Below, in pieces: positions 1,091 to 20,000 of a stretch of DNA of 20,000 bases. The notes beneath the pieces were generated by a model. It did no database searches, was not told the origin of the DNA, and was given only the letters and a program-made list of their open reading frames with translations. The stretch is from an uncultured virus (IMG/VR IMGVR_UViG_3300009060_000024) (Duplodnaviria > Heunggongvirae > Uroviricota > Caudoviricetes): IMG/VR virus record IMGVR_UViG_3300009060_000024. One strand, written 5' to 3'. How positions within the stretch are numbered: position 1 is the stretch's first letter; the number at the start of each line of letters is the position of its first letter. The position numbers were made by a program, and so were the translations under genes.

Positions 1091-1163
1091 TAGTCCCGTA
1101 GAGATTCGAACTCTAGTCCTCGGCTCCAAAGGCCGATGTGATTGGCCGCTACACCACGGGACT
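1091..1163 (-). tRNA. tRNA-Gln(TTG)
   Basis: AGTCCCG/CGGGACT acceptor with archaeal-type A1-U72; anticodon arm TCGGC-CTTTGGA-GCCGA; T-loop TTCGAAT. Confidence 0.95.
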
Positions 1164-1167
1164 CAGA

Positions 1168-1256
1168 CGGCAGGACTGGGATTTGAACCCAGAGTGGAGT
1201 CATTACCTCCGGCTGGTTCTCAAGACCAGTGCATTGCCAGATTCTGCCATCCTGCC
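1168..1256 (-). tRNA. tRNA-Ser(TGA)
   Basis: GGCAGGA/TCCTGCC acceptor, G73, arm CTGGT-CTTGAGA-ACCAG, long variable arm. Confidence 0.95.
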
Positions 1257-1322
1257 ACATATTATTTTAACTCTTTGTTAGCATCTCTATATACACGACC
1301 ACACTAATAAATTTTGTGCGTG

Positions 1323-1595
1323 TTATGCGTCATTGTGTTGGTCTACCATTGGTATGCTCCTTTCTTCATCCTTTGGTATTGGGTTTCCGTCTTGGTCGAG
1401 CATTATTGTGTCATCTGGGACGTTAGTGCGTTTATACACTGTACGTCTCCCGCATTCAAAGCACTTCATGACAGGAACGTCATCGTACTTTTTGTTTATC
1501 CATATTACCCGCATACAATCATTATGCATGCAGTAGTATGGGATCTCTTCTTGTTGCGTCTTTACAGATCTGCTGTATGTATCGTTATGTCTCAT
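1323..1595 (-). CDS. Small Cys-rich putative Zn-binding protein
   Basis: CMHNDC...CFECG; likely start MRHND overlapping the upstream stop (ATGA). Confidence 0.65.
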   Translation of the reverse strand: MRHNDTYSRSVKTQQEEIPYYCMHNDCMRVIWINKKYDDVPVMKCFECGRRTVYKRTNVPDDTIMLDQDGNPIPKDEERSIPMVDQHNDA

Positions 1596-1729
1596 TCGTA
1601 CCCCCAATTATCATCTTCTGGCTCTTCCTCCGACCATCCACATTGCACACATATTTGTTTGTCCAATAATGCACTTCGGTTAAAATGGCCGCAATTAGGA
1701 CACGTCCAGCGGTTGTATGTTTCAACCAT
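1592..1729 (-). CDS. 45-aa Zn-ribbon microprotein (not in ORF track)
   Basis: MVETYNRWTCPNCGHFNRSALLDKQICVQCGWSEEEPEDDNWGYE, preceded by GGAGGTGA Shine-Dalgarno. Confidence 0.8.
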   Translation of the reverse strand: MVETYNRWTCPNCGHFNRSALLDKQICVQCGWSEEEPEDDNWGYE

Positions 1730-1743
1730 TTAATCACCTCCAA

Positions 1744-1816
1744 AGCTACCAGAGGGATTTGAACCCCCGACAACATCCTTACAAGGGACGCGCTCTACCA
1801 ACTGAGCCATGGTAGC
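1744..1816 (-). tRNA. tRNA-Thr(TGT)
   Basis: GCTACCA/TGGTAGC acceptor; loop CTTGTAA; T-loop TTCAAAT. Confidence 0.95.
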
Positions 1817-1821
1817 ACTCA

Positions 1822-1894
1822 CGGACATGACGAGACTCGAACTCGCGATCTAGAGGTTAGGAACCTCTCGCCTTGTCCACTAGGCCACATGTCC
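1822..1894 (-). tRNA. tRNA-Arg(CCT)
   Basis: GGACATG/CATGTCC acceptor; arm AGAGG-TTCCTAA-CCTCT. Confidence 0.95.
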
Positions 1895-2030
1895 AAATGG
1901 CTGCTTAGGGCAGCCAATCCGACTACGGGTGCGTATTGTGACGATCATATCTCAACCCTCACTGACCAGGCAAGGGTGCATCTGTTCCTTGCTCTCCCCT
2001 CTATTTAATATTGCGCCGAGGAGGCGCAAG
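1895..2030 (-). ncRNA. Candidate structured RNA filling the tRNA-Asn/tRNA-Arg spacer
   Basis: No ORF; several hairpins, a possible 5' pseudoknot, and a 3' CCUAA hairpin that recurs at 19953-19977. Confidence 0.45.
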
Positions 2031-2104
2031 CGCCTGCCCGAGGAATCGAACCTCGAACCTTCTGGGTAACAGCCAGATGCTCTACCAGGTTGAGCTAGGC
2101 AGGC
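2031..2104 (-). tRNA. tRNA-Asn(GTT)
   Basis: GCCTGCC/GGCAGGC acceptor, G73; arm TCTGG-CTGTTAC-CCAGA. Confidence 0.95.
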
Positions 2105-2346
2105 TTATAGGGGATTTTATGCCTCCCCCACAGAGCATCGGCACTCCAACACGCCACCATTACACAATTTGTGAATCCTGATGTTAAGTTCAGGCTTCAC
2201 CATCCCACGTGTCAATTGTCCCGACGAATCAACCTATCGAATGAGGTCTACGTTGTTGTGTACTCTATCTTCCGTGATATGATACGAGTTATGGTAGCAG
2301 GTAAGCTCTCGCTCGCGTGTCAATGTGGCATGTTTTACATGCCGAG

Positions 2347-2419
2347 TGGACCACCTCGGATTTGAACCGAGATCTGCACGTCCCAAACGTGCAATGATAC
2401 CAAGGTACACCAGTGGTCC
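2347..2419 (-). tRNA. tRNA-Pro(TGG)
   Basis: GGACCAC/GTGGTCC acceptor; arm GCACG-TTTGGGA-CGTGC. Confidence 0.95.
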
Positions 2420-2422
2420 AAA

Positions 2423-2535
2423 TGGGAGTGGGAGGGATCGAACCCCCGTCACAGATGTCATGATTGAGTTAGCGACATATGGCAATTTTGTTTGATGCTC
2501 ACCATTACTGTGACATTCCATTAAATTACACTCCC
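2423..2535 (-). ncRNA. tRNA-like RNA with the anticodon arm replaced by a branched domain
   Basis: Perfect acceptor GGGAGTG/CACTCCC+A; T-arm GGGGG-TTCGATC-CCTCC; 7-bp GTCACAG/CTGTGAC helix enclosing two hairpins. Confidence 0.7.
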
Positions 2536-2687
2536 TCGTTTATCGCTTCTATTAACGTTTTTTCAAACGACGATTTAGTTACTCCGGGGCATTGTGGACA
2601 GATGATTACATCTTGATCACGAGGATATACGACCCTGTAGAAGTCGTCGCTTATGTAACCTCCACAGTTCTCGCACTCGTGTGACAC
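2526..2687 (-). CDS. 53-aa CPxCG-related haloarchaeal-type Zn-finger protein (not in ORF track)
   Basis: GTG start; MSHECENCGGYISDDFYRVVYPRDQDVIICPQCPG...EGV; last codons overlap the tRNA-like RNA. Confidence 0.7.
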   Translation of the reverse strand: MSHECENCGGYISDDFYRVVYPRDQDVIICPQCPGVTKSSFEKTLIEAINEGV

Positions 2688-2688
2688 A

Positions 2689-3546
2689 CTATGACTTTAG
2701 GGAACGTGGTTTTATAATTCTTTCGGGTAGTGTTATACGATTCTCATCGTTCGGGAATCGTGGAGGTATCATCCAACTTTGTTTTATGCCACATTCCCAG
2801 TTAGATGTTATCTTCATTGGGTAATGGTTATCTAAATATATGTTAACAGTATCTGTGTTAACGATGGTCGAGTCTAGATAACCCATAGACATTATACAGT
2901 CTGTTATATGCTCCTCAGACTCATCATGCGGAGAGCCTTCATAATGGTCAACGTTACTCCAGTCTATATCATAGTCATCAAAATCTTCCCAATGAATACG
3001 CTCTGCCATTTCAGAGTCATCCGAGTCTGTCCACATATAGAACAACCCATCTCTTGCACTTAGATACATGTATCCATTCTTCTTATCCCCCATCCCCTTA
3101 TCATAGTCGTTAATAAAATCGCTTATGAAGGAGAAATCGTTGGTAATTTTAACAGATGTGTCTAGATCAGGAACTTGATCTGGGACACCTGATACTTGGT
3201 CAGGATCTGTCATTGGGAACTTATATTCCCTGTTGTCTGCATCAAGCTGAAGTTTATATAATTTCCCGGCAGATTGTACTATCTCGAACGTAACAGTATC
3301 ATCGTTCACACTCGAAACGTAATCTATGATTCTGCTAACGTCTATGCCAATACGTGGAAACTCTCCAACTTCCCACACCTCCATCGACTCGGATGGTATA
3401 AACGCTGCTTGAAGTGCAGTGTTTGACATTTCATTAACTCTTATAACCATCCCTTTTTCACTCATGTTTATGAGTAACTCATCTCTGTACTCATTGAGTG
3501 AATTGAATACATCATACAGCCTGTCCGCTTGTATCTCCATTTTCAT
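2689..3546 (-). CDS. pcn: DNA sliding clamp (PCNA-like)
   Basis: PCNA-type N-terminus (MEIQADRLYDVFNSLNEYRDELLINMSEKGMVIR), IGIDV, HYPMKIT, and WMIPPR matching the xxAPR C-terminal motif. Confidence 0.85.
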   Translation of the reverse strand: MKMEIQADRLYDVFNSLNEYRDELLINMSEKGMVIRVNEMSNTALQAAFIPSESMEVWEVGEFPRIGIDVSRIIDYVSSVNDDTVTFEIVQSAGKLYKLQLDADNREYKFPMTDPDQVSGVPDQVPDLDTSVKITNDFSFISDFINDYDKGMGDKKNGYMYLSARDGLFYMWTDSDDSEMAERIHWEDFDDYDIDWSNVDHYEGSPHDESEEHITDCIMSMGYLDSTIVNTDTVNIYLDNHYPMKITSNWECGIKQSWMIPPRFPNDENRITLPERIIKPRSLKS

Positions 3547-3821
3547 TTATGATCTAGCCAATTGTCTGCTGTTACGTTTGTCTTTCCGTTACTACCGTTT
3601 GAACTCTTCTCAAGGTCTATGTCAGTCTCTTCTATAACATAGTCTGCCATGAGTGTTTCCAACACCTTTATTCTCCTCTCTATATTTTCCATTCTCTTAT
3701 CATACTCTACTACAAGTTTATACATCCTCTTAAGCCTTTCGTCATCTGTCTGTGCTTCGTCAACGTCATCTGGAGTAGTTTCGTCTTTATCTCCAGTGTC
3801 AACTATATCATCTAGTCCCAT
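3543..3821 (-). CDS. Hypothetical acidic coiled-coil protein
   Basis: Heptad-like YDKRMENIERRIKVLETLM; overlaps both neighbours. Confidence 0.7.
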   Translation of the reverse strand: MGLDDIVDTGDKDETTPDDVDEAQTDDERLKRMYKLVVEYDKRMENIERRIKVLETLMADYVIEETDIDLEKSSNGSNGKTNVTADNWLDHK

Positions 3822-4249
3822 TTATTACTCGTGGGCTGTTTATTGTTGTTCCATTCTCTGCCACTGTTAACAAGCGACGAAACTGCGTCGTCAACCGATG
3901 TTGTAATGGCATCAGAATGATACTCTAAGAACACGGGTATGTCATCCTTGCTCGATTCATCTGTAAGAAGCACTGATGGTATCCCAAGGGAATAAGCTAC
4001 ATGATTCTCGTAGTACGTTCCACATGTATTGAATGGTTCTATAACCCGCATCAGTATTCCGTCACTGTCCTTAACAGCGTTTTTACATACTTCTGGGATT
4101 GATTTTCGGTCTTCGTGTTTGCACAGATTTATTGGGTTGATCCAATCAATACTTGGGTACCTGTCTATTATGTCCTCTCTCCATTCGTTAGCGTATTCTA
4201 TGCTTTCAACCGCGTCAACTGGGCCTGCAAGGTAGTACATTTTATCCAT
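3812..4249 (-). CDS. Nucleoside 2-deoxyribosyltransferase-like / nucleotide N-hydrolase family protein
   Basis: YLAGP, WR...INP, SDGIL, GTYYE, AYSLGIP motifs. Confidence 0.85.
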   Translation of the reverse strand: MDKMYYLAGPVDAVESIEYANEWREDIIDRYPSIDWINPINLCKHEDRKSIPEVCKNAVKDSDGILMRVIEPFNTCGTYYENHVAYSLGIPSVLLTDESSKDDIPVFLEYHSDAITTSVDDAVSSLVNSGREWNNNKQPTSNKWD

Positions 4250-4251
4250 TG

Positions 4252-4422
4252 TTATTTGTTGTTCAGCTTAGTGTATCTGTCGCTTGTGATGTATTGACCT
4301 GGCTCCTCATCATGCACGACATAATACAGCTCGCATTTGATGCATTTCCACCTTCGTTTGTACCTCTTTGTATTAAGCTCCTTACAGAAGGAACCACACA
4401 CATCACATCTCTTTGACGGCAT
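4252..4422 (-). CDS. 56-aa Zn-ribbon microprotein (not in ORF track)
   Basis: MPSKRCDVCGSFCKELNTKRYKRRWKCIKCELYY...; fills the gap between genes. Confidence 0.65.
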   Translation of the reverse strand: MPSKRCDVCGSFCKELNTKRYKRRWKCIKCELYYVVHDEEPGQYITSDRYTKLNNK

Positions 4423-4429
4423 TGGAGTT

Positions 4430-4624: not shown

Positions 4625-4635
4625 ACTTCACCTCA

Positions 4636-4674
4636 AGCACACTGGAGGAATCGAACCTCCACAAACCATTGTGC
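4636..4674 (-). ncRNA. tRNA minihelix-like element (acceptor + T-arm only)
   Basis: GCACAAT-GGTTTGT-GGAGG-TTCGATT-CCTCC-AGTGTGC-T. Confidence 0.6.
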
Positions 4675-4693
4675 GTGGAACAGATTGGTTAAC

Positions 4694-5488
4694 TTAGTCT
4701 ATTAACGCCTTAACACCTCCAAGTTTGCCGTTCTTTACCGGACAGTAATCGGAATGCGAACAGTATTGGCACTCCTTCTCATAAGCCGGCACCTGCTTCT
4801 TATCAAAGTACTGCATCTTCTCTTTCCAGAACCTTGTGTCCATCCCATCAAGCTGCTCGTTAGTATATCTGTTGCCAGTCCTGTATCCAAAGTCCTTAAG
4901 GGCGTTATGGATACTGTGTGCCTTGCTCTTAACCACCTCCCAATTATCTTCACTCATCGTGCCAGGCATCACGGTTATATCATTAACTAAGTCTCTGGAC
5001 TTACTGTTAATCATTATAAGACCGTATGTGTCAGCATCATACATATGAGCGTATGTATTTGCCTGACTCATGTATTTGTACAACCTTCCGTGACCACTCG
5101 ATGGAGGGATGGACGAATACTTTATGTCGAATATTGTTGTCTCCCCGTCCTTTGTGCAGATTATGTCACACTTACCTGTGATCGACACTTCATCGTCTAT
5201 CTGGCACTGTGACGGCACTTCATATGAGGTGTCTACTGGGTGATAGCCAGCCCTGTTAAGGGCGTCTGTCATCAACCCAGTCTCTTGGAGGTAGTAATGG
5301 ACAGCGCTTCCCTGAAACAGCCAGCAATTAAGAACTGTCTCATCATCCGTCATCCAGTCGAGGAACACCTTTAGAGGACATCCTGTAATCTGTGACGGAT
5401 GGTATTCTCCTAGAACATGTTTGCCATACGAGACGTTGTTCTCGTATAGAACATCTCCAAGAGACTCCTCAATAAGAGTGTCGTTCAT
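4694..5488 (-). CDS. Cas4-like PD-(D/E)XK exonuclease with Fe-S cysteines
   Basis: HPSQITGC, GSAVH, GKCD...DIK, QxxxY, CQYCSHSDYC. Confidence 0.88.
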   Translation of the reverse strand: MNDTLIEESLGDVLYENNVSYGKHVLGEYHPSQITGCPLKVFLDWMTDDETVLNCWLFQGSAVHYYLQETGLMTDALNRAGYHPVDTSYEVPSQCQIDDEVSITGKCDIICTKDGETTIFDIKYSSIPPSSGHGRLYKYMSQANTYAHMYDADTYGLIMINSKSRDLVNDITVMPGTMSEDNWEVVKSKAHSIHNALKDFGYRTGNRYTNEQLDGMDTRFWKEKMQYFDKKQVPAYEKECQYCSHSDYCPVKNGKLGGVKALID

Positions 5489-7437: not shown

Positions 7438-7580
7438 TATTCGTTGTTGTTGTATTCGTCAACTCGATTCTTGATGAAGCTGATAAGCGGCTCATCTAAA
7501 TTGATGTTTCTAGGAACAGTATTTCTATACTCCTCCCAGAGAGTCTTATCGACTTCCAGAGGGTATGTTTTGGTTGGCAT
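7437..7580 (-). CDS. 47-aa ribbon-helix-helix-like DNA-binding protein (not in ORF track)
   Basis: MPTKTYPLEVDKTLWEEYRNTVPRNINLDEPLISFIKNRVDEY: beta strand plus two helices; first gene after a promoter. Confidence 0.7.
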   Translation of the reverse strand: MPTKTYPLEVDKTLWEEYRNTVPRNINLDEPLISFIKNRVDEYNNNE

Positions 7581-7610
7581 ACGTTGCGTTTGCACACACG
7601 TACCGGGGGT

Positions 7611-7621
7611 ACATAACCTTT
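7611..7621 (-). promoter_or_regulatory. Putative archaeal BRE/TATA promoter (AAAGGTTATGT)
   Basis: About 30 nt upstream of the RHH ATG; similar motif at 12631, 16205 and 18263. Confidence 0.55.
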
Positions 7622-7650
7622 ACTAACCTAAGGTTATGCAAAGTCACTCG

Positions 7651-8805
7651 TCATCGAACGTCGCTGTACCGTGCCTCGTACCGGCACCCGTGGAGTGCGT
7701 CAAAATACGCCTGCCCGGCCAGCTCGTCCGGTTTTTCTATCATCCCGTGGGATATACCGTATCCGACCAAAACGCGCCACGGGACCGCGTGCGTGCCCAC
7801 AAAGCCTTTGTCAACAGCCGTACACCAAGCACGGTAGTGTAGAGTATCATCTCTGTCCCATTTGCGTCTAACGTCATCACATGATCTTCCAGTAGCCTCT
7901 ACTGCTAAGAACTGTTGCGCGTTTAGACCACATCCTTGCGAACTCCCATAATCATGCCTCCAACATGTAAACGTGTCTCCATCTGAGTTCTTCATGAAGT
8001 TCGATCCGGTTTCACTTCCATGAACAGGATGTGCTATCCTCTTGCCCGGAGAAAGCCATGGCAACACATCATCAGCGTCCAACTTATAGAAATCGTATCT
8101 TGTGTCTTTATTTGACGTTGATGAGTATGTCTTTGACGGATGGTAATCTGGTCTTGTTGGCTTTATGTATTCTTGAAGAGCCTCCATCATATCATCCTTA
8201 GATATTGATGTGATCGAATCACCTCTAAGAGGTCCATATCTGTTGCCACTAGGATGAACAGACCCCGGACCAACTACATACCCGTGAGGATCACATTTGA
8301 CCTCGCCTAAGTGCGACCACTCATATTGCTTAACACATTCTCCATCACTATCAATCCAGCATTGATAATCGTCATCACTACACTCATGAGGTTTTTCTTT
8401 ATAGTGCAGTATCTGTCTCACATTCATTCCCTCGCATTTATAGAATAGATGGACACCATCTCTTGATCCTGTCACTTGGTAGAGTGTGTCTGGCAATTTA
8501 GACGTTATGTCATCAACATAGCTCTTGTCATCTATATCAATAACTGCTAGGTCATTTGCGCATGCTATCCCGTAACCATATCCAGCGTCGAAGTACGCAT
8601 TAAGAATCTCGCTATCTGCTGCATACCTATTATCCTCAAACCCATGAGCATAATTCCATCCTTTATTTTTGAATGGTATAGGGAAAAACACCTCGCCTAA
8701 GCACCACAGGTCGTGAGGTATCTTATCCTGCCAATTTGGACGCCACCATTGATGTTTTCTTTTGTGTGCCCAATCTGGCTCATGGCCGTCGCACTTCTGA
8801 CTCAT
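7651..8805 (-). CDS. Bifunctional primase-polymerase (prim-pol) with C-terminal His/Cys domain
   Basis: GYGI...VIDIDD, TGSRDGVHLFY, GYVVGPGSVHPSG; C-terminal HPVH...FTCWRH. Confidence 0.88.
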   Translation of the reverse strand: MSQKCDGHEPDWAHKRKHQWWRPNWQDKIPHDLWCLGEVFFPIPFKNKGWNYAHGFEDNRYAADSEILNAYFDAGYGYGIACANDLAVIDIDDKSYVDDITSKLPDTLYQVTGSRDGVHLFYKCEGMNVRQILHYKEKPHECSDDDYQCWIDSDGECVKQYEWSHLGEVKCDPHGYVVGPGSVHPSGNRYGPLRGDSITSISKDDMMEALQEYIKPTRPDYHPSKTYSSTSNKDTRYDFYKLDADDVLPWLSPGKRIAHPVHGSETGSNFMKNSDGDTFTCWRHDYGSSQGCGLNAQQFLAVEATGRSCDDVRRKWDRDDTLHYRAWCTAVDKGFVGTHAVPWRVLVGYGISHGMIEKPDELAGQAYFDALHGCRYEARYSDVR

Positions 8806-10340: not shown

Positions 10341-11297
10341 TCAATTCCCCATTTCCATTTCTTCTATAACGTCTGAGAGGAACCCGTCGTCATCGGTGTT
10401 TTTATCTCCCCAACTCGATAGACCAGTCTGATCCTCATTTGACCATTTTCGCACCTCTTCAGGATCGTAATTTGTTATAAGTGTTTCTACCGTTTCCTTT
10501 CCTTCACCTTTGACACCACTATTTATAAAGTTGGTGGACTTCTCTCGCGAGATATAATAATCCTCCAACCTGTCGGGGATTTCATCGTATGAAACCATCC
10601 ATTTTCCTTCTATGCTCTCAAGGTTGTCACAGAACTTATCATGACTGAAGTCTGATTCAAGGTAATATGATTCTGTTCCAATGTATGGAGGATCAAAATA
10701 GAAGAACGTGTCTTCGCTGTCATAGTAATCTATCAACTTCTCATATGACACGTTCTCTATTGTAACGGAGTCAAAACATCCGACGAACTCCTTTAGCCTC
10801 TTCTTTGCATTTGAAAATGTGGCAGCTCCATTCTGGACCTTGCTTCTTCCAAAACCGGATTTACTCTGGTATTTTGCACCAAACTGCATATATCTTAAAC
10901 AAAAGAATATGCCAGCTCTCTGTATGTGGCCATGGGATATATCATCCGATGACACCATTGAAGACTCTAGAACCGGGGCGGGCGGTTCATAATCAGAATC
11001 CTCCTCGTCCCAATGGTAAAACGCCATACCAAACTCTTGGTATGTCTCATACGAGTAAGGCACGCCGTGTAACCATTCAATCAGCCTGTCTGGAGCTTCT
11101 CTGTACACTGTGAAGAAATGAACCAGGTCACTATCTAAATCATTGTACACGTCCACATCTGCAGGCTCCTTATTAAGAAGAACAGCACCAGATCCTCCGA
11201 ACCCTTCGACGTAGCATTTATGTTGAGGCATCATAGATTGTATTCTCTTGAACATTCTTGACTTACCACCAGGCCACTGGAACAATGTATCTGCCAT
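10341..11297 (-). CDS. DNA N6-adenine methyltransferase, Dam/D12 class
   Basis: WPGGKSR, YVEGFGGSGAV, YNDLD, YFDPPY, WMVSYD, ETLITNY. Confidence 0.95.
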   Translation of the reverse strand: MADTLFQWPGGKSRMFKRIQSMMPQHKCYVEGFGGSGAVLLNKEPADVDVYNDLDSDLVHFFTVYREAPDRLIEWLHGVPYSYETYQEFGMAFYHWDEEDSDYEPPAPVLESSMVSSDDISHGHIQRAGIFFCLRYMQFGAKYQSKSGFGRSKVQNGAATFSNAKKRLKEFVGCFDSVTIENVSYEKLIDYYDSEDTFFYFDPPYIGTESYYLESDFSHDKFCDNLESIEGKWMVSYDEIPDRLEDYYISREKSTNFINSGVKGEGKETVETLITNYDPEEVRKWSNEDQTGLSSWGDKNTDDDGFLSDVIEEMEMGN

Positions 11298-12088: not shown

Positions 12089-12089
12089 T

Positions 12090-12317
12090 TTATCCTAGCA
12101 CCCATGCAATCTTACAAATGGTAGGGTATGAGAACGGACTGTTCTTGATCACCCGAGCCTGAATATATAAACACGCACAAAACGCAAAGATGAATAATGA
12201 CTTTACTAGCGATCCTAGAGGAAACAAAGCCATAGCCAAAAGACCGACGGATGATATTCCAAATCTCCATCGTATGACGAAACTCTCCCACTTACCGATT
12301 TCTCTTGTGTCAGTCAT
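12090..12317 (-). CDS. Small membrane protein (start MTDTREI)
   Basis: Two hydrophobic segments; the upstream in-frame extension overlaps another gene and a promoter. Confidence 0.6.
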   Translation of the reverse strand: MTDTREIGKWESFVIRWRFGISSVGLLAMALFPLGSLVKSLFIFAFCACLYIQARVIKNSPFSYPTICKIAWVLG

Positions 12318-12393
12318 GTGTTGTTGTTGGCACTCAAATGAGGCGGTGAGTTTCTTCGCCCCGGTGCCGTACCGAAAAACCGCATGCAACCCC

Positions 12394-12404
12394 CTTAAAA
12401 TTAA
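12394..12404 (-). promoter_or_regulatory. Putative TATA box (TTAATTTTAAG)
   Basis: About 26 nt upstream of a GC-rich leader hairpin. Confidence 0.45.
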
Positions 12405-12426
12405 CGGCTCCCTGTTGGGAGTGTGG

Positions 12427-12644: not shown

Positions 12645-14522
12645 CTATTGGTTGTCCCAATTCCCATTCATCGTTCGTTGTCCAGACTGCCACTTAGACG
12701 CCTTGTACTCGTCTCCAAGCAAGTTTGATAGTTCTATCGCGGAAGACGGGTCTATAACACCCTGTGCCAACACAAGCTTTTCTGAAGCCCGTGTCATGCC
12801 CACATAATACACGCGCCTCTCCTCATCTGTAAGTGGCACCTGAGATATTGGAGTGTTAATCTGCTCACGTCTATCGACATTTTCATTGAACTCCTCCCTC
12901 ATGTTCGTCATTATTGTCTTTGTTGTGTCCGTTGCCAATAGCACAGTTTCAGCCTCCTTACCTTTGGAGCTGTGTATGGTTCCTATACGGACCCGGTCAG
13001 GGTCCATATCATCGTTACCATTTACAATATTGCCCCTTATGGCAGACTTCTCGTACCAATTCAGCTCTTCTGTTTTGTCTAAGTACATTATGGCAGCACT
13101 TCTGTACTCAGTTTCGTTACGCATAAATGGGAATATCTCATTTAGCCTGTCTTTACTTATGCCTCCAAAGTGAGACATGACCTTTTCAGATTCAGACACG
13201 TCACTCCTGTCATTATACATGTCATCCTCTGCATATTCTATTAGCTGGTCTAACTCATCACCATTTATCTTTCCTTTACCGTTGTGTATTTTAGCGAGGC
13301 CATCTCTAAGAGTGGTTATATCATCACTCCACGTATCATATGTACTCATGTTCCGGTATGGTATGCCTTCATCATGAAGAGTGTCCCTGAACTCATCTAT
13401 ATGATACCTCGCACGGAAAAGTATCATGCACTCGCCATCCTCTATATGCTCCAACACCTGTCTTGTAGAAGGTGCCCTCATGGGAATGAACTCTCCACCA
13501 TCTCCATTTGGAACAACATCTTTCTCTTGTCTGTGGTCTACTTGATGTATAACGCCATCACACACCTCCCAAATCTCTCTTGGGATTCTGTACGTTGTTT
13601 CAAGTACCTCAAAGTCACCTTCTTCGTTAAGCATAAATTCTGGATCTGCACCACTCCATCCATATATGCTTTGGTCATCATCACCTCCAAGATACACCTT
13701 CTCACACACGAGCTTTTGAAGCAAATACCACTCCCATTGAAGAGCTGTTAAGTCCTGCACCTCGTCAACGTACAGTACCTTTGTATCAATGAAAGCTCCT
13801 ATACCACGTATAATGTCTGGATCAAGCTGAGGGTCATTACACGCTTCAAGGAACATCTCCCTTGTAGTTGTGTTTTCATCTGCGAATAATACTCCCCAAC
13901 CAAGATTTTCTAGCTGTTTGTATCCAAGCTCGACGACATCCTCTATCATATCACCGAACCCTACCCACCCTCTGTCGTCCTTCCACATCTCCCATTGGCT
14001 CATTAGCCATTCTGGGTCTTCTGGGAATCCCCAATCAGCTGGACACTTCTCCCAGTCCTCTATATCAAGGCGGTTAGACTGGAGCCAACTGTATATTCGG
14101 AATAGCGCGTTTCCTTCTTGTTGGTCAGCTCCCATTATGTCATCTTGATCGTCGTCCCAGCCGAAGTTGAGATCATGTGCATCGCAGAACTTCTTTTTCT
14201 TCCAATGGTCTACAGTATCTTCACGCTTAAGACCAAGAGTGCTAAAGCATCTGCTGTGAATAGTTGTAACTCTGTCGTCTATCTTGTAACGAGGAGCATC
14301 TGTCATACGCTCAAGCCTGTCAGCCGCCTCGTCAACACCCGCATTGGTGTATGTTACAAGCATCTGTTCGTTAAGAGAATACTTATCAGAGTTCTCCAAG
14401 AACAGTCCGTCAAGGTCTAGATCTGGATTTCCAACAACGCGGGTGGTTTTTCCAGTTCCAGGAGCTCCAATCACCTTATAGACTTCCGGCCCTGGTGAAT
14501 CGTCCATGTTGTCCCTACTCAT
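12645..14522 (-). CDS. UvrD/Rep-family SF1 helicase
   Basis: GAPGTGKT, TYTNA, TIHS, VDEVQD, GDDDQSIYGWSGA, TYR, TIHSSKGKE, EERRVYYVGMTRA; start moved to MSRDNM. Confidence 0.95.
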   Translation of the reverse strand: MSRDNMDDSPGPEVYKVIGAPGTGKTTRVVGNPDLDLDGLFLENSDKYSLNEQMLVTYTNAGVDEAADRLERMTDAPRYKIDDRVTTIHSRCFSTLGLKREDTVDHWKKKKFCDAHDLNFGWDDDQDDIMGADQQEGNALFRIYSWLQSNRLDIEDWEKCPADWGFPEDPEWLMSQWEMWKDDRGWVGFGDMIEDVVELGYKQLENLGWGVLFADENTTTREMFLEACNDPQLDPDIIRGIGAFIDTKVLYVDEVQDLTALQWEWYLLQKLVCEKVYLGGDDDQSIYGWSGADPEFMLNEEGDFEVLETTYRIPREIWEVCDGVIHQVDHRQEKDVVPNGDGGEFIPMRAPSTRQVLEHIEDGECMILFRARYHIDEFRDTLHDEGIPYRNMSTYDTWSDDITTLRDGLAKIHNGKGKINGDELDQLIEYAEDDMYNDRSDVSESEKVMSHFGGISKDRLNEIFPFMRNETEYRSAAIMYLDKTEELNWYEKSAIRGNIVNGNDDMDPDRVRIGTIHSSKGKEAETVLLATDTTKTIMTNMREEFNENVDRREQINTPISQVPLTDEERRVYYVGMTRASEKLVLAQGVIDPSSAIELSNLLGDEYKASKWQSGQRTMNGNWDNQ

Positions 14523-15039
14523 CTTCCATAACCATGTTGTGTATTGAATTGTGAGGTTGGTTTCTACCAGTTGGTTCTTCATCTACTTCTGCTTCTTCTA
14601 CCTTAATCGTCCTGTTCCTCGTGTCATTGGTACTTCTCCAATGGTCATCATCTGTCCATTTTACCCACTTGCGTTCATATACAGATTTTACTTCTCTAAC
14701 GTAAACCTGCTTTAAATGAACAGATTTTGAAACCGACTTTTTCAAGTTAGATAACGGTATGCAGTCAATATAATTAGTGTTGTATCTGCTCTCATCGGTC
14801 GGCCCTCTGAACAATAGATGCTCACCATCAAGAATGGGCCACAAGGATTTGATCCAAACGTAACCCTCTTTTAGATCGACTCTGAATCTCTTTGGGTGAC
14901 ATCTGTATTGGGTATGTTCCTCTTCTCTCCATTCTAAATCTACGGGGGTCATTCTTTTTTCATCCTTTGTTTTGTCATTATATGAATCTTCTTGTTGAGT
15001 TTCGTGTCGGAGTTTTAATATTGATGGAACGTCAAACAT
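14515..15039 (-). CDS. Hypothetical protein
   Basis: 174-aa ORF tiling the operon. Confidence 0.65.
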   Translation of the reverse strand: MFDVPSILKLRHETQQEDSYNDKTKDEKRMTPVDLEWREEEHTQYRCHPKRFRVDLKEGYVWIKSLWPILDGEHLLFRGPTDESRYNTNYIDCIPLSNLKKSVSKSVHLKQVYVREVKSVYERKWVKWTDDDHWRSTNDTRNRTIKVEEAEVDEEPTGRNQPHNSIHNMVMEDE

Positions 15040-15447: not shown

Positions 15448-15516
15448 CAGATGGGCCTATTGTTATTCTGCATCCGCATTCACTACAATAAGTCTCGACC
15501 ACTCCATTCTTCTCTC

Positions 15517-15902: not shown

Positions 15903-15911
15903 TACGCTAAG

Positions 15912-15993
15912 TGGTGCTGGCCGGATTTGAACCGACGAATGACTAACAACTCGGTCTTAAGCCGAGCGCCTTTGGCCGCTTGGCTACAGCACC
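15912..15993 (-). tRNA. tRNA-Leu(TAA)
   Basis: GGTGCTG/CAGCACC acceptor, A73; arm CTCGG-CTTAAGA-CCGAG; extended variable region. Confidence 0.93.
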
Positions 15994-15997
15994 ACAA

Positions 15998-16068
15998 TGC
16001 GCCATCGAGGAATCGAACCTCGAACTCTACCTTGTAAGGGTAGCGTCATACCGTTTGACCAACGGCGC
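15998..16068 (-). tRNA. tRNA-Val(TAC)
   Basis: GCGCCGT/ATGGCGC acceptor; arm CTACC-CTTACAA-GGTAG. Confidence 0.95.
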
Positions 16069-16069
16069 T

Positions 16070-16200
16070 ATATATACTCTTTAGAGATGTATACTCTATT
16101 TACTACTATACAAACAGGCGGCGCGAAGCGCCGCCTAAGCTGTATACTCTAACAGCTTAATAGAGTAATACAGCTCATATTACTACTAGTTGGTACTAGA
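16070..16200. repeat. AT-rich non-coding region with TATACTCT x3, TACTACTA x2 and two adjacent inverted repeats (origin candidate)
   Basis: AGGCGGCGC-GAA-GCGCCGCCT at 16116-16136; TAAGCTGT-N8-ACAGCTTA at 16136-16159. Confidence 0.55.
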
Positions 16201-16204
16201 CTAC

Positions 16205-16243
16205 TATAACCTTTATGGTTCATAGTTGATAGTAAGGTTTAAG
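16205..16243. promoter_or_regulatory. Back-to-back promoter-like motifs: AAAGGTTATA (-) and AAGGTTTAAG (+)
   Basis: 16205-16214 on the minus strand and 16234-16243 on the plus strand. Confidence 0.5.
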
Positions 16244-16300
16244 TGGGGTGTGTTCTATATGGGTATAGAGAAAGAGATCTGTATGTTATTCAAAACAGTT

Positions 16301-16819
16301 TCACTCGTCGTACTTTACTGTATTATTACAGTCTGGGTAACGAGTGCATCCATAGAACTTCCCATATTCACCCTCTCTGATAACCATAACAGATCCGCAT
16401 TCATCACAAACCTTGAGGCCTCCACTACCCTTCTCCATCACGTTGTCAATCTTGTTCGAGAGATTCTTTCTCCAAGTAGCTATACGAAGAGTTTTTGTAT
16501 CTCCGATAAGCTTCTTCATGTTAGGCCTGTAGAAGGCAACGAGCCGTATCGCATCAGCCCCCTTCGATCTAGCCTTATCAGTTCGAGTGTCAATAGTAGT
16601 GAAGCAAGTGAGTGTGACATCACTGTTTCCAGGTACAAAATCTCTGGTAGAGAAAACATATTCCATGGACGGTTTGATCTCACTGTCTATATACCATTCT
16701 TCAGGTCTTTCTCTGAAGAATTTGTCGAAGTCGTCAAAAACTGGTTGGACGTAGTTGCTCGTGTTTTGTTCGATTCTTTGCTCGGCAAGGTCGTCCTCGG
16801 TGAGGTCTTTAAGTCCCAT
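16301..16819 (-). CDS. Protein with C-terminal topoisomerase-type C4 zinc ribbon
   Basis: CDECGSVMVIREGEYGKFYGCTRYPDC. Confidence 0.85.
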   Translation of the reverse strand: MGLKDLTEDDLAEQRIEQNTSNYVQPVFDDFDKFFRERPEEWYIDSEIKPSMEYVFSTRDFVPGNSDVTLTCFTTIDTRTDKARSKGADAIRLVAFYRPNMKKLIGDTKTLRIATWRKNLSNKIDNVMEKGSGGLKVCDECGSVMVIREGEYGKFYGCTRYPDCNNTVKYDE

Positions 16820-16821
16820 AT

Positions 16822-17085
16822 TTATGGGTTTAGATATTGGTCAGCCTCTTCATCTGTCATTATACTACATTCTACCATTGTATTAACTATACGCTCTTGG
16901 GCATTAAGTATTTCTTCATTCTCAGGAGGTACAGTTACCAAAGTGCCACAGTTGACACACATTGACGCCATTTGCCATGTGCCGGAATCGGTACTGTCTG
17001 TTATAACAACAGATGGAACCATTCCAACTGTAGCATGTTTGGTGTCATCCACACAGTATTGACAGTGGTGGGTTTTTGTTCTCAT
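16822..17085 (-). CDS. Small Zn-finger protein
   Basis: HCQYC...CVNCG. Confidence 0.7.
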   Translation of the reverse strand: MRTKTHHCQYCVDDTKHATVGMVPSVVITDSTDSGTWQMASMCVNCGTLVTVPPENEEILNAQERIVNTMVECSIMTDEEADQYLNP

Positions 17086-17189
17086 TAATCGTGGTGCGTC
17101 TTCATGTGCTGCTCGTACTCCTCATGTGTATCACCTGAGAAGCCGCACAGTACACATTCTGTTGGGTAAAAGTGATCTATGCTATCCAT
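17085..17189 (-). CDS. 34-aa C2H2 zinc-finger microprotein (not in ORF track)
   Basis: MDSIDHFYPTECVLCGFSGDTHEEYEQHMKTHHD; TAATG overlap with the next gene. Confidence 0.7.
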   Translation of the reverse strand: MDSIDHFYPTECVLCGFSGDTHEEYEQHMKTHHD

Positions 17190-17230
17190 TGTTGCAGAGT
17201 ATGTGTTTTATGTGGGTACTCAGCCACTAA

Positions 17231-17304
17231 CGGGCCAGGAGGGATTTGAACCCCCGATTATCTGATTAAAAGTCAGTCCCTTTGCCGGGCTAAGGTACTG
17301 GCCC
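17231..17304 (-). tRNA. tRNA-Lys(TTT)
   Basis: GGGCCAG/CTGGCCC acceptor, G73; loop CTTTTAA. Confidence 0.92.
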
Positions 17305-17310
17305 AAAAAA

Positions 17311-17742
17311 TTATGAGTCCAGCTCTTTCCTTATCTGTGCCGCCGTATGGTGGACACAGAAGTCTTCTCCTTCTATTTCTACACCAGACGAGGTGCAGTC
17401 TTTACCGCATATGTAACAAGTTGTCTTTGGTCTGAACCCATCATCTAGTGAATCTGGGTTTGTGGTAGCGGCTTGATGAACTATCTTGTACCGCTTGTGT
17501 GCAGGGAGATTACTCGTAACCTCTCCAACAGTATATCTTGTGTGATCAATGATAAACTGTTTTACCTGCTCCCACATTTCCTCATCGAAGTATTTGACCT
17601 TATCGTTTGGGCCAGTTACCTTCTTGTAGTAATCAGGTTCTGAGTTCTTGTTACTGGTGCGTTTTCTGCCAGAAGAACTTTTGGATTTTGATCTGGACTT
17701 GTCTTTATCTACTCCTTCAGGGAGTAATTCGTCAAGTCCCAT
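17311..17742 (-). CDS. Hypothetical protein with C-terminal Cys/His motif
   Basis: CYICG...FCVHH; basic Ser-rich N-terminal region. Confidence 0.75.
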   Translation of the reverse strand: MGLDELLPEGVDKDKSRSKSKSSSGRKRTSNKNSEPDYYKKVTGPNDKVKYFDEEMWEQVKQFIIDHTRYTVGEVTSNLPAHKRYKIVHQAATTNPDSLDDGFRPKTTCYICGKDCTSSGVEIEGEDFCVHHTAAQIRKELDS

Positions 17743-17778
17743 TAGCTATTCCTCCAATGAAGGAGGGCCTGAAACGTT

Positions 17779-18068
17779 TTACTCGTCGTCGGGGCCGAGG
17801 GTGTTGAAGAGATCGCGGAGCGGCTCGTAGTTGTTCCGCTTCTCTGCCTCCACAACCGCGTGGAGGAACTTACCGACCGGGACGTTGATGTTCTGACCGA
17901 GCATGTTACGAAGTTCCTGCGCCGAATCGTAGAACTCCTGCTCGTGGCGGTGTTCCGTACCATCAGGGATCTCGTCTGCCGCATTACGCGGATTCCAGAA
18001 CTTGATGTGGGTACTCTTACCGCCGCTAGACGACTCCTCGGACTCTGGGGTGAGGTCTCCAATTCCCA
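17779..18068 (-). CDS. Hypothetical acidic protein (start MGIGDLTPES), visibly more GC-rich codons
   Basis: ATG follows a structured leader; the longer ORF start lies in the structured RNA. Confidence 0.7.
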
Positions 18069-18084
18069 TGGTTAATACACTCCA

Positions 18085-18242
18085 TTTGTAAGGCGATGAG
18101 TACTCGCCCCCCGTGTTTCCCCACTGGAACATCCCTCGTACCAGTCAGGCTCGCAGCCGATCAGGGTCCGGCTGAGTTCCAACACTGGGATCGAACCAGA
18201 TTTCGTCCTATTGGAAACCGCATGTCTACGTCCCCTCACAAA
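18085..18242 (-). ncRNA. Candidate promoter-driven structured RNA or leader containing a tRNA minihelix-like module
   Basis: Terminal helix TTTGTGAGG/CCTTACAAA; internal TTCCAAT/GTTGGAA stem with a TTCGATC T-loop arm; CAGCCGG/TCGGCTG and ACTGG/CCAGT hairpins. Confidence 0.55.
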
Positions 18243-18262
18243 CGTTAGTACGCACGGGGTTA

Positions 18263-18273
18263 CTATAAACCTT
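18263..18273 (-). promoter_or_regulatory. Putative BRE/TATA promoter (AAGGTTTATAG)
   Basis: Predicted start site near 18240, coinciding with the 5' strand of the terminal helix. Confidence 0.6.
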
Positions 18274-18349
18274 CCGTTTTACGTCCGCCTTTGTGAAAAC
18301 GCACTTTTCACGTAAGCGGGAGGTGGGCCATAACGAATATACGATGTGG

Positions 18350-18580
18350 CTACCTAACCTCTACCCCTTCGAGATGCTTGATTCGGTCCTTGAACACCCT
18401 CATTGGATTGCCCTTATATTTTGCCTTGTTCTTTGTTGACTCTACATATTTACGTACTGTGCTTTCAGATACTCCTACATTAGATGCAATGCTTCTTTTA
18501 CTTAGACCAACAGCGTGGAGTGCTACTATTTCAGCTACCTTTTGATCTGATATACTCTTAAAGTTACCATTATAAGTCAT
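18350..18580 (-). CDS. Helix-turn-helix DNA-binding protein (start MTYNGN)
   Basis: LHAVGLSKRSIASNVGVSESTVRKYV. Confidence 0.8.
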   Translation of the reverse strand: MTYNGNFKSISDQKVAEIVALHAVGLSKRSIASNVGVSESTVRKYVESTKNKAKYKGNPMRVFKDRIKHLEGVEVR

Positions 18581-19064
18581 GGTTGCCCTCCAACCATGAC
18601 CAATCAATTGGCGACGGTGACTCATCCCCCTCGTCAGCATATTGGTCAACATGCCTCTCAGCACGCTCTTTGGCATTCCCAACTCTCATATCAATATCAT
18701 CAAACATGGACATGCACTCATTGTACATCTCAATATTCTTTCCATACTGCTTACCTCTGAAGAACGCATACCCTTCATCATCTGGTATTTCATCATTTCT
18801 TATTGCAGATTTGCACATGTCCTCAGCTCTGTCATCTGGAGGGTAGCACATCATTCCATGAAAAGCTGTTGAGTAGCATAGCCAATCAATAAACTCAGAT
18901 GGGGACATAGACGCATCTTTAAGAACGTTGCATCTTATACCATCTAAACTGTTCCATTGACGTGCTATGTCTAGAGATCTCTGTATCTCTTCATCCCCCT
19001 CGATTTCTTCGTTTGAATCGAGACAATCTAATTTTATTTCTATCGTGAGTATATTATGCGTCAT
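18570..19064 (-). CDS. Hypothetical acidic protein
   Basis: 164-aa ORF with an upstream GGTGA element. Confidence 0.7.
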   Translation of the reverse strand: MTHNILTIEIKLDCLDSNEEIEGDEEIQRSLDIARQWNSLDGIRCNVLKDASMSPSEFIDWLCYSTAFHGMMCYPPDDRAEDMCKSAIRNDEIPDDEGYAFFRGKQYGKNIEMYNECMSMFDDIDMRVGNAKERAERHVDQYADEGDESPSPIDWSWLEGNHDL

Positions 19065-19085
19065 ATGTTCACCATCTTTACCTAA

Positions 19086-19158
19086 CGCTCACACAGGGAC
19101 TCGAACCCTGAATCATCTGCTTAGAAGGCAGACGCCTTATCCATTTGGCCATGTGAGC
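19086..19158 (-). tRNA. tRNA-Arg(TCT)
   Basis: GCTCACA/TGTGAGC acceptor; arm TCTGC-CTTCTAA-GCAGA. Confidence 0.95.
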
Positions 19159-19178
19159 AACCATAGATCAGTTATTGT

Positions 19179-19454
19179 TTATGCGTGCCATTGGTCTATC
19201 TCATCTTCTATCCCAATTTTAAGTATCTGAGATTTTGATAAGCTCTTTAGCACGCATCTACTGCACCAATCGTAATATCCAACAGGGAATACGCTTATAT
19301 CTTTTTCTATTTGTCTCCTAGCACATGTGTCGGAACTACATTTTATATCTCCAGAATCTGATTCAATGTGCATAACACTTCGAGATGGGTTTGCTGTTAT
19401 CTTAACCTTGCTAACCCCGAGGGTGTCGCGCATTTGATTCGTGTCTTTGATCAT
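19179..19454 (-). CDS. Hypothetical protein with His/Cys motif
   Basis: H...KC...WCSRC. Confidence 0.65.
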   Translation of the reverse strand: MIKDTNQMRDTLGVSKVKITANPSRSVMHIESDSGDIKCSSDTCARRQIEKDISVFPVGYYDWCSRCVLKSLSKSQILKIGIEDEIDQWHA

Positions 19455-19455
19455 G

Positions 19456-19686
19456 TTAAAACAACTTTTGTTCTATTACAGATCCAATTATATATGCAGT
19501 TAATAAGAACGCCATTGCTATTAAAGCATAAATGAAAAATGTTAACATGTGTGTGATTGCCATATATAAAACTAGCAAAAACAAAGACGAGATGCCAATA
19601 ACAATAAAACCAGCGAGAAACCTGATTATTATTGCATCTGTTCTTAACGCCCCATGACTCCGTTTGTCAGGTATCCATTTCACCAT
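19456..19686 (-). CDS. Small two-TM membrane protein (start MVKWIP)
   Basis: Two long hydrophobic helices; the longer ORF start lies in tRNA-Ala. Confidence 0.65.
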   Translation of the reverse strand: MVKWIPDKRSHGALRTDAIIIRFLAGFIVIGISSLFLLVLYMAITHMLTFFIYALIAMAFLLTAYIIGSVIEQKLF

Positions 19687-19693
19687 TCTTAAG

Positions 19694-19765
19694 TGGACTC
19701 GGTGGGGCTTGAACCCACAGCCTCTTGCTTGCAAAGCAAGCGATCTGCCATTGATCTACGAGCCC
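19694..19765 (-). tRNA. tRNA-Ala(TGC)
   Basis: GGGCTCG/CGAGTCC acceptor with G3:U70, A73; loop TTTGCAA. Confidence 0.96.
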
Positions 19766-19879
19766 TCTGGCACACATTCAGCACGTCTATGAATAACCGT
19801 TTGCAGAGGGAGTGCCACGCCCCCTGGGCCTATTAGACCCTGATCTTGACCATTGGTTTTCCAGATGCAATGGCCCTAA
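19766..19879 (-). ncRNA. Candidate structured RNA filling the tRNA-Gly/tRNA-Ala spacer
   Basis: Four consecutive hairpins and a TGGCAC/GTGCCA pseudoknot pairing; no credible ORF. Confidence 0.45.
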
Positions 19880-19950
19880 TGCACCAGCAGAGATTCGAAC
19901 TCTGGAAGCGAGCTTGGAAGGCTCGAATGATACCACTTCATCACTGGTGC
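19880..19950 (-). tRNA. tRNA-Gly(TCC)
   Basis: GCACCAG/CTGGTGC acceptor, A73; arm CGAGC-CTTCCAA-GCTCG. Confidence 0.95.
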
Positions 19951-20000
19951 TTAATGGTGGGTTAGGCCCACCAATCCTGTGACACTCAACCACGTCTGTA

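Follow-up and report, generated by a model that had tools for sequence, protein, structure and literature searches.

Do the tRNA genes of a virus, and the tRNA-like elements that accompany them, serve as places at which the tRNA-processing enzymes of the host cut the viral messages? The question is raised by a stretch of 20,000 nucleotides (nt) from an uncultured virus of the Caudoviricetes (IMG/VR record IMGVR_UViG_3300009060_000024), which in its whole length is referred to here as the window. Twelve tRNA genes and three tRNA-like elements (mimics 1 to 3) lie among its open reading frames (ORFs). The original prediction was of a system in which RNase P and RNase Z cuts at tRNAs and minihelices release a repertoire of non-coding RNAs and segment the messenger RNAs (mRNAs). 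In the current analysis we favour the second half of that proposal, in which tRNAs and minihelices would be cut sites of RNase P and tRNase Z that segment the viral mRNAs, and give it a probability of roughly 0.5. The strongest evidence comes from one of the minihelices, mimic 2, and from the family to which it belongs.

Acceptor/T-arm minihelices

Mimics 2 and 3 consist of an acceptor-like stem stacked on a T arm, with a TTCGAT(T/C) loop and a 9-nt GG-containing linker on the 5' side. They share with the known t-elements both the structure, an acceptor-like stem on a T arm with a GGTTCRANYCC-type loop, and the placement, in intergenic gaps of the coding strand. Mimic 2 is located in the gap from the stop of the PD-(D/E)XK nuclease ORF (4694) to the ATG of the following ORF (4624), and the ~13 nt leading to this ATG contain GAGGTGA. 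Mimic 3 sits in the gap 18133-18349, with a hairpin after it. A descriptor scan of the window returned three minihelix matches, namely these two elements and one inside tRNA-Asn, with a chance level of 0.10 per window and a maximum of 1 in 200 Markov-1 simulations. The T-loop motif GGTTCRANTCC, with at most one mismatch, occurs 14 times in the window against 1.84 expected, a count reached by 0 of 200 shuffles. The three tRNA mimics that had been predicted are therefore upheld, mimics 2 and 3 by the descriptor scan (0.10 expected) and mimic 1 by narrowly passing the threshold of the Rfam tRNA family RF00005.

Relatives of the window were identified through its prim-pol protein. The metagenomic prim-pol relatives comprise 127 proteins, mostly of ~50% identity, and the comparisons drew on a subset of their loci, L026-L031. 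L026 is syntenic with the window (prim-pol protein 73% identical, DNA 68-82%), L027-L029 are fragments, and the prim-pol identity is 52% in L031 and 46% in L030.

The stem of mimic 2 reads CGCAC/GTGTG in the window, CGTGC/GCACG in L026 and L027, and CTGAG/CTCAG in L106. Compared with the window, L026 and L027 keep the linker AATGGTTT(A/G) and the T arm, and three of the five pairs of the acceptor-like stem have other bases and still pair. L106, an unrelated contig without protein similarity to the window, has been obtained from an exact-pattern scan of IMG/VR; its linker and T arm are as in mimic 2 and its stem is a third complementary one. The full covariation of this stem in three lineages is the strongest result of the analysis.

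A looser IMG/VR pattern, in which only the linker and T-loop were fixed and not the acceptor helix, yielded 72 viral loci. An ungapped alignment (A4) of 41 sequences was made from 38 of these 72 together with the window, L026 and L106. The acceptor-like stem, unspecified in the pattern, pairs in 73.5% of the cells of A4, several rows being one base out of register. For the whole structure 80.1% of cells pair, compared to 53.8% after shuffling (0/500), and 163 cells are changed on both sides, compared to 63.9 after shuffling (0/500). Slid controls gave pairing of 41-53%.

A covariance model (R1) of this AAUGGUUU-linker family, comprising a 7-base-pair (bp) acceptor stem, a 9-nt linker, a 6-bp T stem and a 7-nt loop, scores 49.5 bits (E = 9e-10) on window positions 4632-4679. 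The score is partly by construction since the sequence is in the seed alignment, and the independent support is the covariation of the stem. R1 reaches at least 40 bits at 44 of the 72 viral pattern loci and at 5 of 100 prokaryote-genome loci with the same pattern, among the matches listed; by a script criterion, 9 of 120 prokaryote-genome pattern loci qualify, again among the matches listed. The AAUGGUUU-linker minihelices, of ~45 nt, are a virus-enriched family. In viruses the copies stand between genes, in the orientation of their neighbours, and are often in contact with the stop codon of the gene before them. The genes upstream of them are mutually unrelated and include DUF1340 (six loci), an exonuclease, HU, a sigma factor, capsid and connector proteins and a homing-endonuclease motif. 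One group of the family comes from Streptococcus phages. In the Streptococcus phage YMC-2011 (L179, record 22852-23202) an unannotated gap of 350 nt between DUF1340-like and DUF1492 genes is matched by blastn with a minihelix-bearing IMG/VR query (L142).

A second, weaker R1 match lies within ~1.3 kb of the first in L114 (249-296), L125 (1353-1399) and L153 (1815-1864). In the window R1 found no second copy, and none in 99 loci of prim-pol relatives. It gives no match at mimic 3, which has the same architecture and is missed because of its different linker, GGACGAAAT. Rfam has no match at the position of mimic 2, and ARAGORN does not call the aligned minihelix elements as tRNAs. For mimic 3 a counterpart is provided by L031, where a minihelix of the same build (1441-1479) occupies the matching place, upstream of a homologous ORF starting with MG(I/L)G; a second minihelix lies 650 nt further upstream.

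Two other roles of the mimic 2 minihelix were considered and rejected: an integration site (attP), ruled out by the covarying 5' strand and by the lack of an integrase in the window, and an intrinsic terminator, ruled out by the lack of a following U-run.

Mimic 1 is of a different kind. Its acceptor, D and T arms fit RF00005, its anticodon arm is replaced by 63 nt, and its fold has z = -2.54 against shuffles. For ARAGORN to call it the threshold has to be lowered, and it is then given as Val(GAC) with an insert of 46 nt at the non-canonical position 29/30; the positive control of the intron mode, tRNA-Arg(TCT) of L031, was found at default settings. No bulge-helix-bulge motif was seen in mimic 1 by eye. 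It may represent a tRNA that is aberrant or in decay, perhaps a degenerate or unusually interrupted tRNA-Val(GAC), and may possibly still be a processing site.

Packing of the tRNA genes against the reading frames

All twelve tRNA genes identified by ARAGORN are on the minus strand, which is the coding strand, and RF00005 confirms each of them (50.9-70.8 bits), in agreement with the canonical one-strand set of the original prediction. They fall into three groups, Gly/Ala/Arg(TCT) at 19.1-19.95 kb, Lys/Val/Leu at 15.9-17.3 kb and Pro/Asn/Arg(CCT)/Thr/Ser/Gln at 1.09-2.42 kb. The tRNA set of L026 is almost identical, apart from small changes in the order.

At Ala, Arg(TCT), Lys, Leu, Thr and Gln the gaps to the neighbouring ORFs are 5-20 nt, too short for a promoter. 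The junctions after tRNA-Thr, after tRNA-Arg(TCT) of L030 and after mimic 2 are alike, with TTG(G)AGGTG, 4-5 nt and then ATG, which suggests that a tRNA and a mimic are interchangeable as junction elements. In L030 the sequence TTGGAGGTG, as in the Thr leader of the window, stands directly after tRNA-Arg(TCT). A run of five to six T is placed exactly between the ORF stop and tRNA-Lys in both the window (17306-17311) and L026 (856-861). A terminator-like signal directly before a tRNA is an odd placement.

Hairpins at the borders of tRNA genes

The tRNA flanks (36 nt) were folded and their energies ranked against 3721 background windows of the same strand. Stems had been predicted at seven tRNA ends, and six of these have been found, on both sides of Gly and of Asn, after Pro and before Arg(CCT); the flank after tRNA-Lys is ordinary (47.6th percentile). 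Among flanks not facing another tRNA, 5 of 18 in the window (~0.9 expected) and 4 of 14 in L026 rank at or below the 5th percentile. Border hairpins are concentrated in stretches that hold only tRNAs.

The CCUAA-loop hairpins before Arg(CCT) and Gly have common flanks and a common loop with different, complementary stems. L026 has a third version of this hairpin before its tRNA-Asn, and an unlike hairpin before its Arg(CCT). A homologue of the hairpin before tRNA-Asn precedes tRNA-Pro in L031; the two differ by one exchange of G-C to A-U and one of G-U to G-C. In L026 the counterpart of the Asn trailer hairpin stands after tRNA-Pro; it has one compensatory pair and has lost two pairs. These comparisons across relatives are suggestive. 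Several of the border stems include G-U pairs, so that they are strand-specific and fit an RNA of the coding strand. In IMG/VR the leader-hairpin motif GGGAGGCRTAAAATCCC occurs at 3 loci, 0 of them near a tRNA; ATTGGN4CCTAAN4CCATT occurs at 61 loci, in 4 of which the N4 arms are complementary, and none of the 4 is near a tRNA.

Proposed segmentation of the viral messages

The structures described above, their strand and positions, the covariation and the enrichment in viruses are observations, from which we infer co-transcription and cleavage. The viral genes would be transcribed as multi-gene RNAs, and every tRNA in them would be cut by host RNase P on its 5' side and by host tRNase Z on its 3' side. 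As tRNAs so near the ORFs would be co-transcribed with them, maturation of the tRNA would cut the message. The elements at 4638-4675 and 18177-18216, which are without D and anticodon arms, would mimic the top half and elbow of a tRNA and be cut by the same enzymes. They would thus be t-elements for junctions that have no tRNA, made of an acceptor/T stack with a T-loop able to dock on the GG. Since tRNAs and mimics are 6-20 nt from neighbouring ORFs the cuts would segment the mRNAs, each parting an upstream mRNA from a downstream one that begins 6-20 nt before its ATG, in some cases directly with the Shine-Dalgarno-like GGAGGTGA. The short GC-rich border hairpins would most likely prevent wrong pairing between the tRNA and its leaders or trailers, or shield the cut ends.

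Comparable arrangements are known. In animal mitochondria tRNAs lie directly against coding regions, nearly every gene is so flanked, and excision of the tRNAs yields the mRNAs, an arrangement known as tRNA punctuation. The tRNAs of the window likewise lie against coding regions; unlike in mitochondria, this holds for only some junctions, and separate promoters probably exist. The tRNA-microRNA units of murine gammaherpesvirus 68 and the two stable RNAs of the tRNA cluster of phage T4 are released by tRNA-processing enzymes. There RNAs other than tRNAs are co-transcribed with viral tRNAs or tRNA-like units, as would be the case in the window; the released RNAs have been observed in those viruses, whereas those of the window are predicted.

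Plant mitochondrial t-elements, which share the T-arm motif, are described as coinciding with mapped mRNA ends (Forner et al. 2007, PMC1920247), and these ends as made by RNase P and RNase Z, with simple acceptor-like stem-loops also proposed as signals (PMC1920247). The minihelices of the window resemble them in the conserved GGTTCRANYCC T arm, the sense orientation and the position between or beside protein genes. The plant elements are organellar, ~74 nt long and cloverleaf-like with mapped ends, whereas those of the window are viral, ~40 nt long and read from the DNA. A t-element upstream of the 5S rRNA of Haloferax volcanii is reported to be cut in vivo by RNase P and tRNase Z, which frees the flanking RNA, and has been used to release CRISPR RNA (Maier et al. 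2015, PMC4326828). It is similar to the minihelices as a tRNA-like structure and in coming from a haloarchaeon, the probable type of host here, and differs from them as a cellular element of an rRNA operon. Both RNase P and tRNase Z are described as reading the tRNA elbow (PMC4810234), and minihelices as standard substrates of RNase P in vitro (PMC11221534).

In a literature search no published description of tRNA-like RNase P elements in archaeal viruses, nor of phage minihelices, was found; a 2023 survey of viral structured RNAs refers to tRNA-like candidates in a general way (PMC10690425). The tRNA-rich haloarchaeal myovirus HGTV-1 (NC_021328) has tRNAs interleaved with small ORFs on one strand in its replication module, so that the general tRNA/ORF layout of the window is not new, this virus being a cultured one. 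HGTV-1 is described as having an intron-bearing tRNA and tRNA pseudogenes (PMC13532342). It has no nucleotide similarity to the window.

Several observations weigh against segmentation at tRNAs and minihelices. No free-standing minihelix was found in the first 50 kb of HGTV-1, and strong hairpins occur at only 3 of its 22 tRNA flanks. Mimic 1 does not occur in L026, the closest relative, in which tRNA-Pro comes right after the ORF stop; it also varies within the population, a low-coverage contig of run X2 having 13 gapped positions over it. The T stem of mimic 3 is only 4 bp, and the L026 locus starts just downstream of this element. The covariation of the border hairpins comes from two or three sequences per comparison. 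The T run right before tRNA-Lys could be a transcription terminator. AT-rich boxes upstream of tRNA-Ser and tRNA-Val hint at promoters of their own, in which case everything need not be one long transcript.

The interpretation given in the original prediction keeps its look-alikes, covariation, tight ORF gaps and border hairpins, and loses the ORF>Val spacer as an RNA, a 7-nt pairing and mimic 1 in L026, the first two of which are dealt with below. Our verdict is that the locus is a putative viral, more precisely archaeal-viral, form of the t-element and not a demonstrated non-coding RNA system. If the minihelices are cut sites, an archaeal virus and many bacteriophages would shape their own mRNAs with a tRNA stub of ~40 nt and the tRNA-trimming enzymes of the host, a trick known until now from organelles, one Haloferax rRNA operon and some animal RNAs. 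The position of viral tRNA genes hard against ORFs would then be explained, annotators would have a new feature to mark, and haloarchaeal expression work would gain a compact natural processing tag.

Ordinary signals and decaying tRNA genes as a possible alternative

The hairpins and AT-rich boxes might instead be ordinary terminators, promoters or operators, and the look-alikes decaying tRNA genes without a role of their own. The spacer ORF>Val, 84% identical to that of L026 and so conserved above much of the coding sequence, has a GC hairpin (16117-16135; stem invariant and loop different in L026) followed by TGTTTG, then TAGTAGT-type direct repeats, whose duplications in L026 are not the same, and, ahead of tRNA-Val, an AT-rich stretch. 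From this order of elements, which speaks for ordinary signals, the spacer probably reads as a control region at the DNA level (terminator and promoter or operator). Boxes similar to TAAATAGAG, found after the Asn trailer hairpin and before Val, point the same way, as do the dispensability of mimic 1 in L026 and the like tRNA/ORF interleaving of HGTV-1 together with the tRNA pseudogenes annotated in it (PMC13532342). The minihelices do not conform to this explanation. Decay of a gene would not leave an invariant T arm together with a stem that covaries in three lineages; the minihelix is ~12 times commoner among viral than among cellular pattern matches (for the cellular ones, among the matches listed); its chance expectation is 0.10 per window; and the leader hairpins are without U-runs and downstream of any promoter. 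We regard ordinary signals as a rather unlikely account of the locus as a whole.

Boxes of the TAGTAGTCTAGTA type are repeated at 16140-16230 (minus strand) of the window and at 2530-2640 of L026, in different copy number. They could be operator or origin iterons beside the replication genes.

Among candidate promoter words, WAARTAGAG occurs 2 times in the window (0.84 expected), AARTAGWRG 5 times (1.51 expected, 1/200 shuffles reaching 5) with 3 of the 5 inside ORFs, and TTWAARTAG with 1 mismatch 18 times (16.4 expected). No usable promoter motif emerges from the words examined.

Spacers and the small-RNA readings

The original prediction also held that the spacers are structured and ORF-free. 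Their folding has been compared with dinucleotide shuffles, and seven coding controls gave z = -0.10 to -1.63. Pro>Asn and ORF>Val exceed both shuffles and controls; Asn>Arg(CCT) does not, nor do Gly>Ala (+0.46), pre-Gly (-0.66) and ORF>Ser (+0.63), which are unremarkable. As to coding capacity, Pro>Asn, Asn>Arg, ORF>Val and the gap 18133-18349 hold only short basic non-ATG ORFs, unlike the acidic proteome, and can be called ORF-free. The same is not true of Lys>ORF, which holds a 34-amino-acid (aa) C2H2-like ORF (17085-17189), or of 7438-7650, which holds a 47-aa ORF (7439-7580, minus strand, MPTKTYPLEV...) conserved in L031 and L028 and not recognisably in L026. The latter region was dropped as an RNA candidate on account of this ORF despite z = -3.97. 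Another candidate, 12089-12426, was dropped with z = 0.01 as probably a small membrane-protein ORF.

These spacers could be functional trans-acting small RNAs, for which tRNase Z would make the 5' ends and RNase P the 3' ends, the terminal hairpins serving to stabilise them; any fate of RNAs so released would be conjectural. In the tRNA-only clusters the spacers do have a hairpin at either end, 1-4 nt away from the tRNA, and Pro>Asn is strongly folded (z = -3.95), whereas Gly>Ala, pre-Gly and ORF>Ser fold like shuffles and Asn>Arg like the coding controls. Asn>Arg(CCT) is 80% identical to the Pro>Arg(CCT) spacer of L026, with conserved blocks that include CAAGGAACAG and CCGTAGTCG. No homologue of the whole Pro>Asn spacer was found in L026; both of its ends resemble the ends of the Met>Pro spacer of L031 and so recur between different tRNAs. 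Such conservation is equally explicable by promoters or processing signals. Covariation among the relatives was observed at the terminal hairpins, with 1 compensatory pair each in two-sequence comparisons. Rfam has no match for the spacers, no target for spacer RNAs was found, and the motifs of the leader hairpins were not found beside tRNAs in IMG/VR.

The sole pairing that had been proposed for them, of 7 nt between the loop CTCAATC of mimic 1 and GGTTGAG, has to be abandoned. GGTTGAG occurs 4 times in the window against 2.54 expected (48/200 shuffles reach 4) and CTCAATC 1 time against 4.18 expected, so that the counts are at chance level; in L026 the loop-supplying mimic 1 is missing and the counterpart of the GGTTGAG stretch reads CGTTGAG. 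Trans-acting spacer RNAs are on the whole an unlikely explanation.

Still less probable is the production of two kinds of stable small RNA by the virus: abundant CCA-tailed top-half mimics of ~40-45 nt, excised as decoys or handles for host tRNA-binding enzymes or tRNA-directed defences, and hairpin-capped trans-acting spacer RNAs of ~134 and ~241 nt from between the tRNAs. Were it so, viral tRNA arrays would double as small-RNA factories, and the decoy role would extend across many phages too.

That the minihelices are mainly top-half decoys or handles, either tRNA-like 3' caps that receive CCA and preserve mRNAs or sponges that bind host tRNA-directed enzymes or nucleases of defence systems, is very doubtful. 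In its favour, the L106 element closes a transcription unit facing a convergent gene, the L031 minihelix at 1441-1479 stands at a 3' end, with a hairpin and then an TTTATAAAAA box after it, some viral contigs hold two copies within 1.5 kb, and viral tRNA-like structures that mimic the elbow are described as recruiting host tRNA enzymes (PMC4810234). Against it, the element has neither a CCA nor a conserved discriminator after it and offers no anticodon arm to anticodon nucleases, and the position of the window element between two close cistrons better fits a processing site.

Gene content, relatives and probable host

The window has a G+C content of 43%, and all its credible genes are on the minus strand; on the plus-strand side there is a single ORF (5-451). 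Besides the enzymes listed in Table 1, several helix-turn-helix and zinc-ribbon proteins have been identified with Pfam. Most likely the window is the replication or early module of a tailed virus of a halophilic archaeon. Three of its proteins have computed isoelectric points of 4.4-5.6 and are acidic. A halophilic archaeon is the most likely host, judging from these acidic proteins, the intron-bearing tRNA of the relative L031 and the contig name of one relative, which cites brine.

A megablast of the whole window against the INPHARED phages gave no match at the DNA level. IMG/VR queried with single window proteins gave no close relatives, and the exact 5' 20-mer of tRNA-Arg(CCT) had 0 matches there.

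Table 1. Positions of the features discussed (z, folding score against shuffles; percentiles, folding energy of the tRNA flank against background windows)
Feature	Coordinates	Strand	Details
Mimic 1	2423..2535	-	RF00005 30.4 bits (gathering score 29); begins on stop codon of ORF 2526-2687
Mimic 2, minihelix	4638..4675	-	5-bp acceptor-like stem, linker AATGGTTTG, 6-bp T stem, TTCGATT loop
Mimic 3, minihelix	18177..18216	-	8-bp acceptor-like stem, 9-nt linker GGACGAAAT, 4-bp T stem, TTCGATC loop
tRNA-Gly(TCC)	19880..19950	-	ARAGORN; Rfam 61.9 bits
tRNA-Ala(TGC)	19693..19765	-	Membrane-protein ORF 6 nt downstream, ATG 19686
tRNA-Arg(TCT)	19085..19159	-	Upstream stop ~19 nt away, downstream ATG ~20 nt
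tRNA-Lys(TTT)	17230..17305	-	ORF stop 5-6 nt upstream, T-run between
tRNA-Val(TAC)	15998..16068	-	ARAGORN, Rfam
tRNA-Leu(TAA)	15911..15993	-	Next ORF ATG 8 nt downstream
tRNA-Pro(TGG)	2346..2419	-	ARAGORN, Rfam
tRNA-Asn(GTT)	2030..2104	-	ARAGORN, Rfam
tRNA-Arg(CCT)	1821..1895	-	ARAGORN, Rfam
tRNA-Thr(TGT)	1744..1816	-	Then 14-nt leader TTGGAGGTGATTAA, then ATG of 46-aa zinc-ribbon ORF
tRNA-Ser(TGA)	1166..1257	-	ARAGORN, Rfam
tRNA-Gln(TTG)	1091..1163	-	Next ORF ATG 9 nt downstream
Leader hairpin, 4 nt before tRNA-Gly	19955..19973	-	7-bp stem, loop CCTAA; 1.6th percentile
Leader hairpin, 3 nt before tRNA-Arg(CCT)	1898..1916	-	7-bp stem, loop CCTAA; 0.4th percentile
Leader hairpin ending 1 nt before tRNA-Asn	2106..2132	-	0.9th percentile
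Trailer hairpin directly after tRNA-Asn	2011..2029	-	Then ATATTAAATAGAG; 2.1th percentile
Trailer hairpin 2 nt after tRNA-Pro	2327..2343	-	4.5th percentile
Trailer hairpin 4 nt after tRNA-Gly	19848..19875	-	7.3th percentile
Pro>Asn spacer	2105..2345	-	241 nt; z = -3.95, 0/200 shuffles; no credible ORF
Asn>Arg(CCT) spacer	1896..2029	-	134 nt; z = -1.60, within coding-control range
ORF>Val spacer	16069..16300	-	232 nt; z = -5.48, 0/200 shuffles
PD-(D/E)XK nuclease	4694-5488	-	Pfam
prim-pol	7651-8805	-	Pfam
Dam-type methylase	10341-11297	-	Pfam
UvrD-type helicase	12645-14582	-	Pfam

The tRNA-Arg(TCT) gene of L031 (16762-16955) holds an intron of ~120 nt (119-121 nt), the ends of which form a long stem.

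A common N-terminal motif, MG(L/V/I)xDL or MGLDE/MGLFDL, opens at least six small acidic ORFs of the minus strand, with starts at 1081, 3821, 12088, 16819, 17742 and ~18069 in the window and at 1550 and 16980 in L031. At three ORF starts the motif is also a direct repeat in the DNA. Small ORFs of the zinc-finger or zinc-ribbon type (CxxC...CxxC or C2H2-like) are unusually many on the minus strand, among them 1589-1729, 17085-17189, 2526-2687 and 16822-17085, and several adjoin tRNAs. Between the plus-strand ORF and the minus-strand genes, the region 452-590 forms very stable hairpins (z = -3.07), which are probably a bidirectional terminator.

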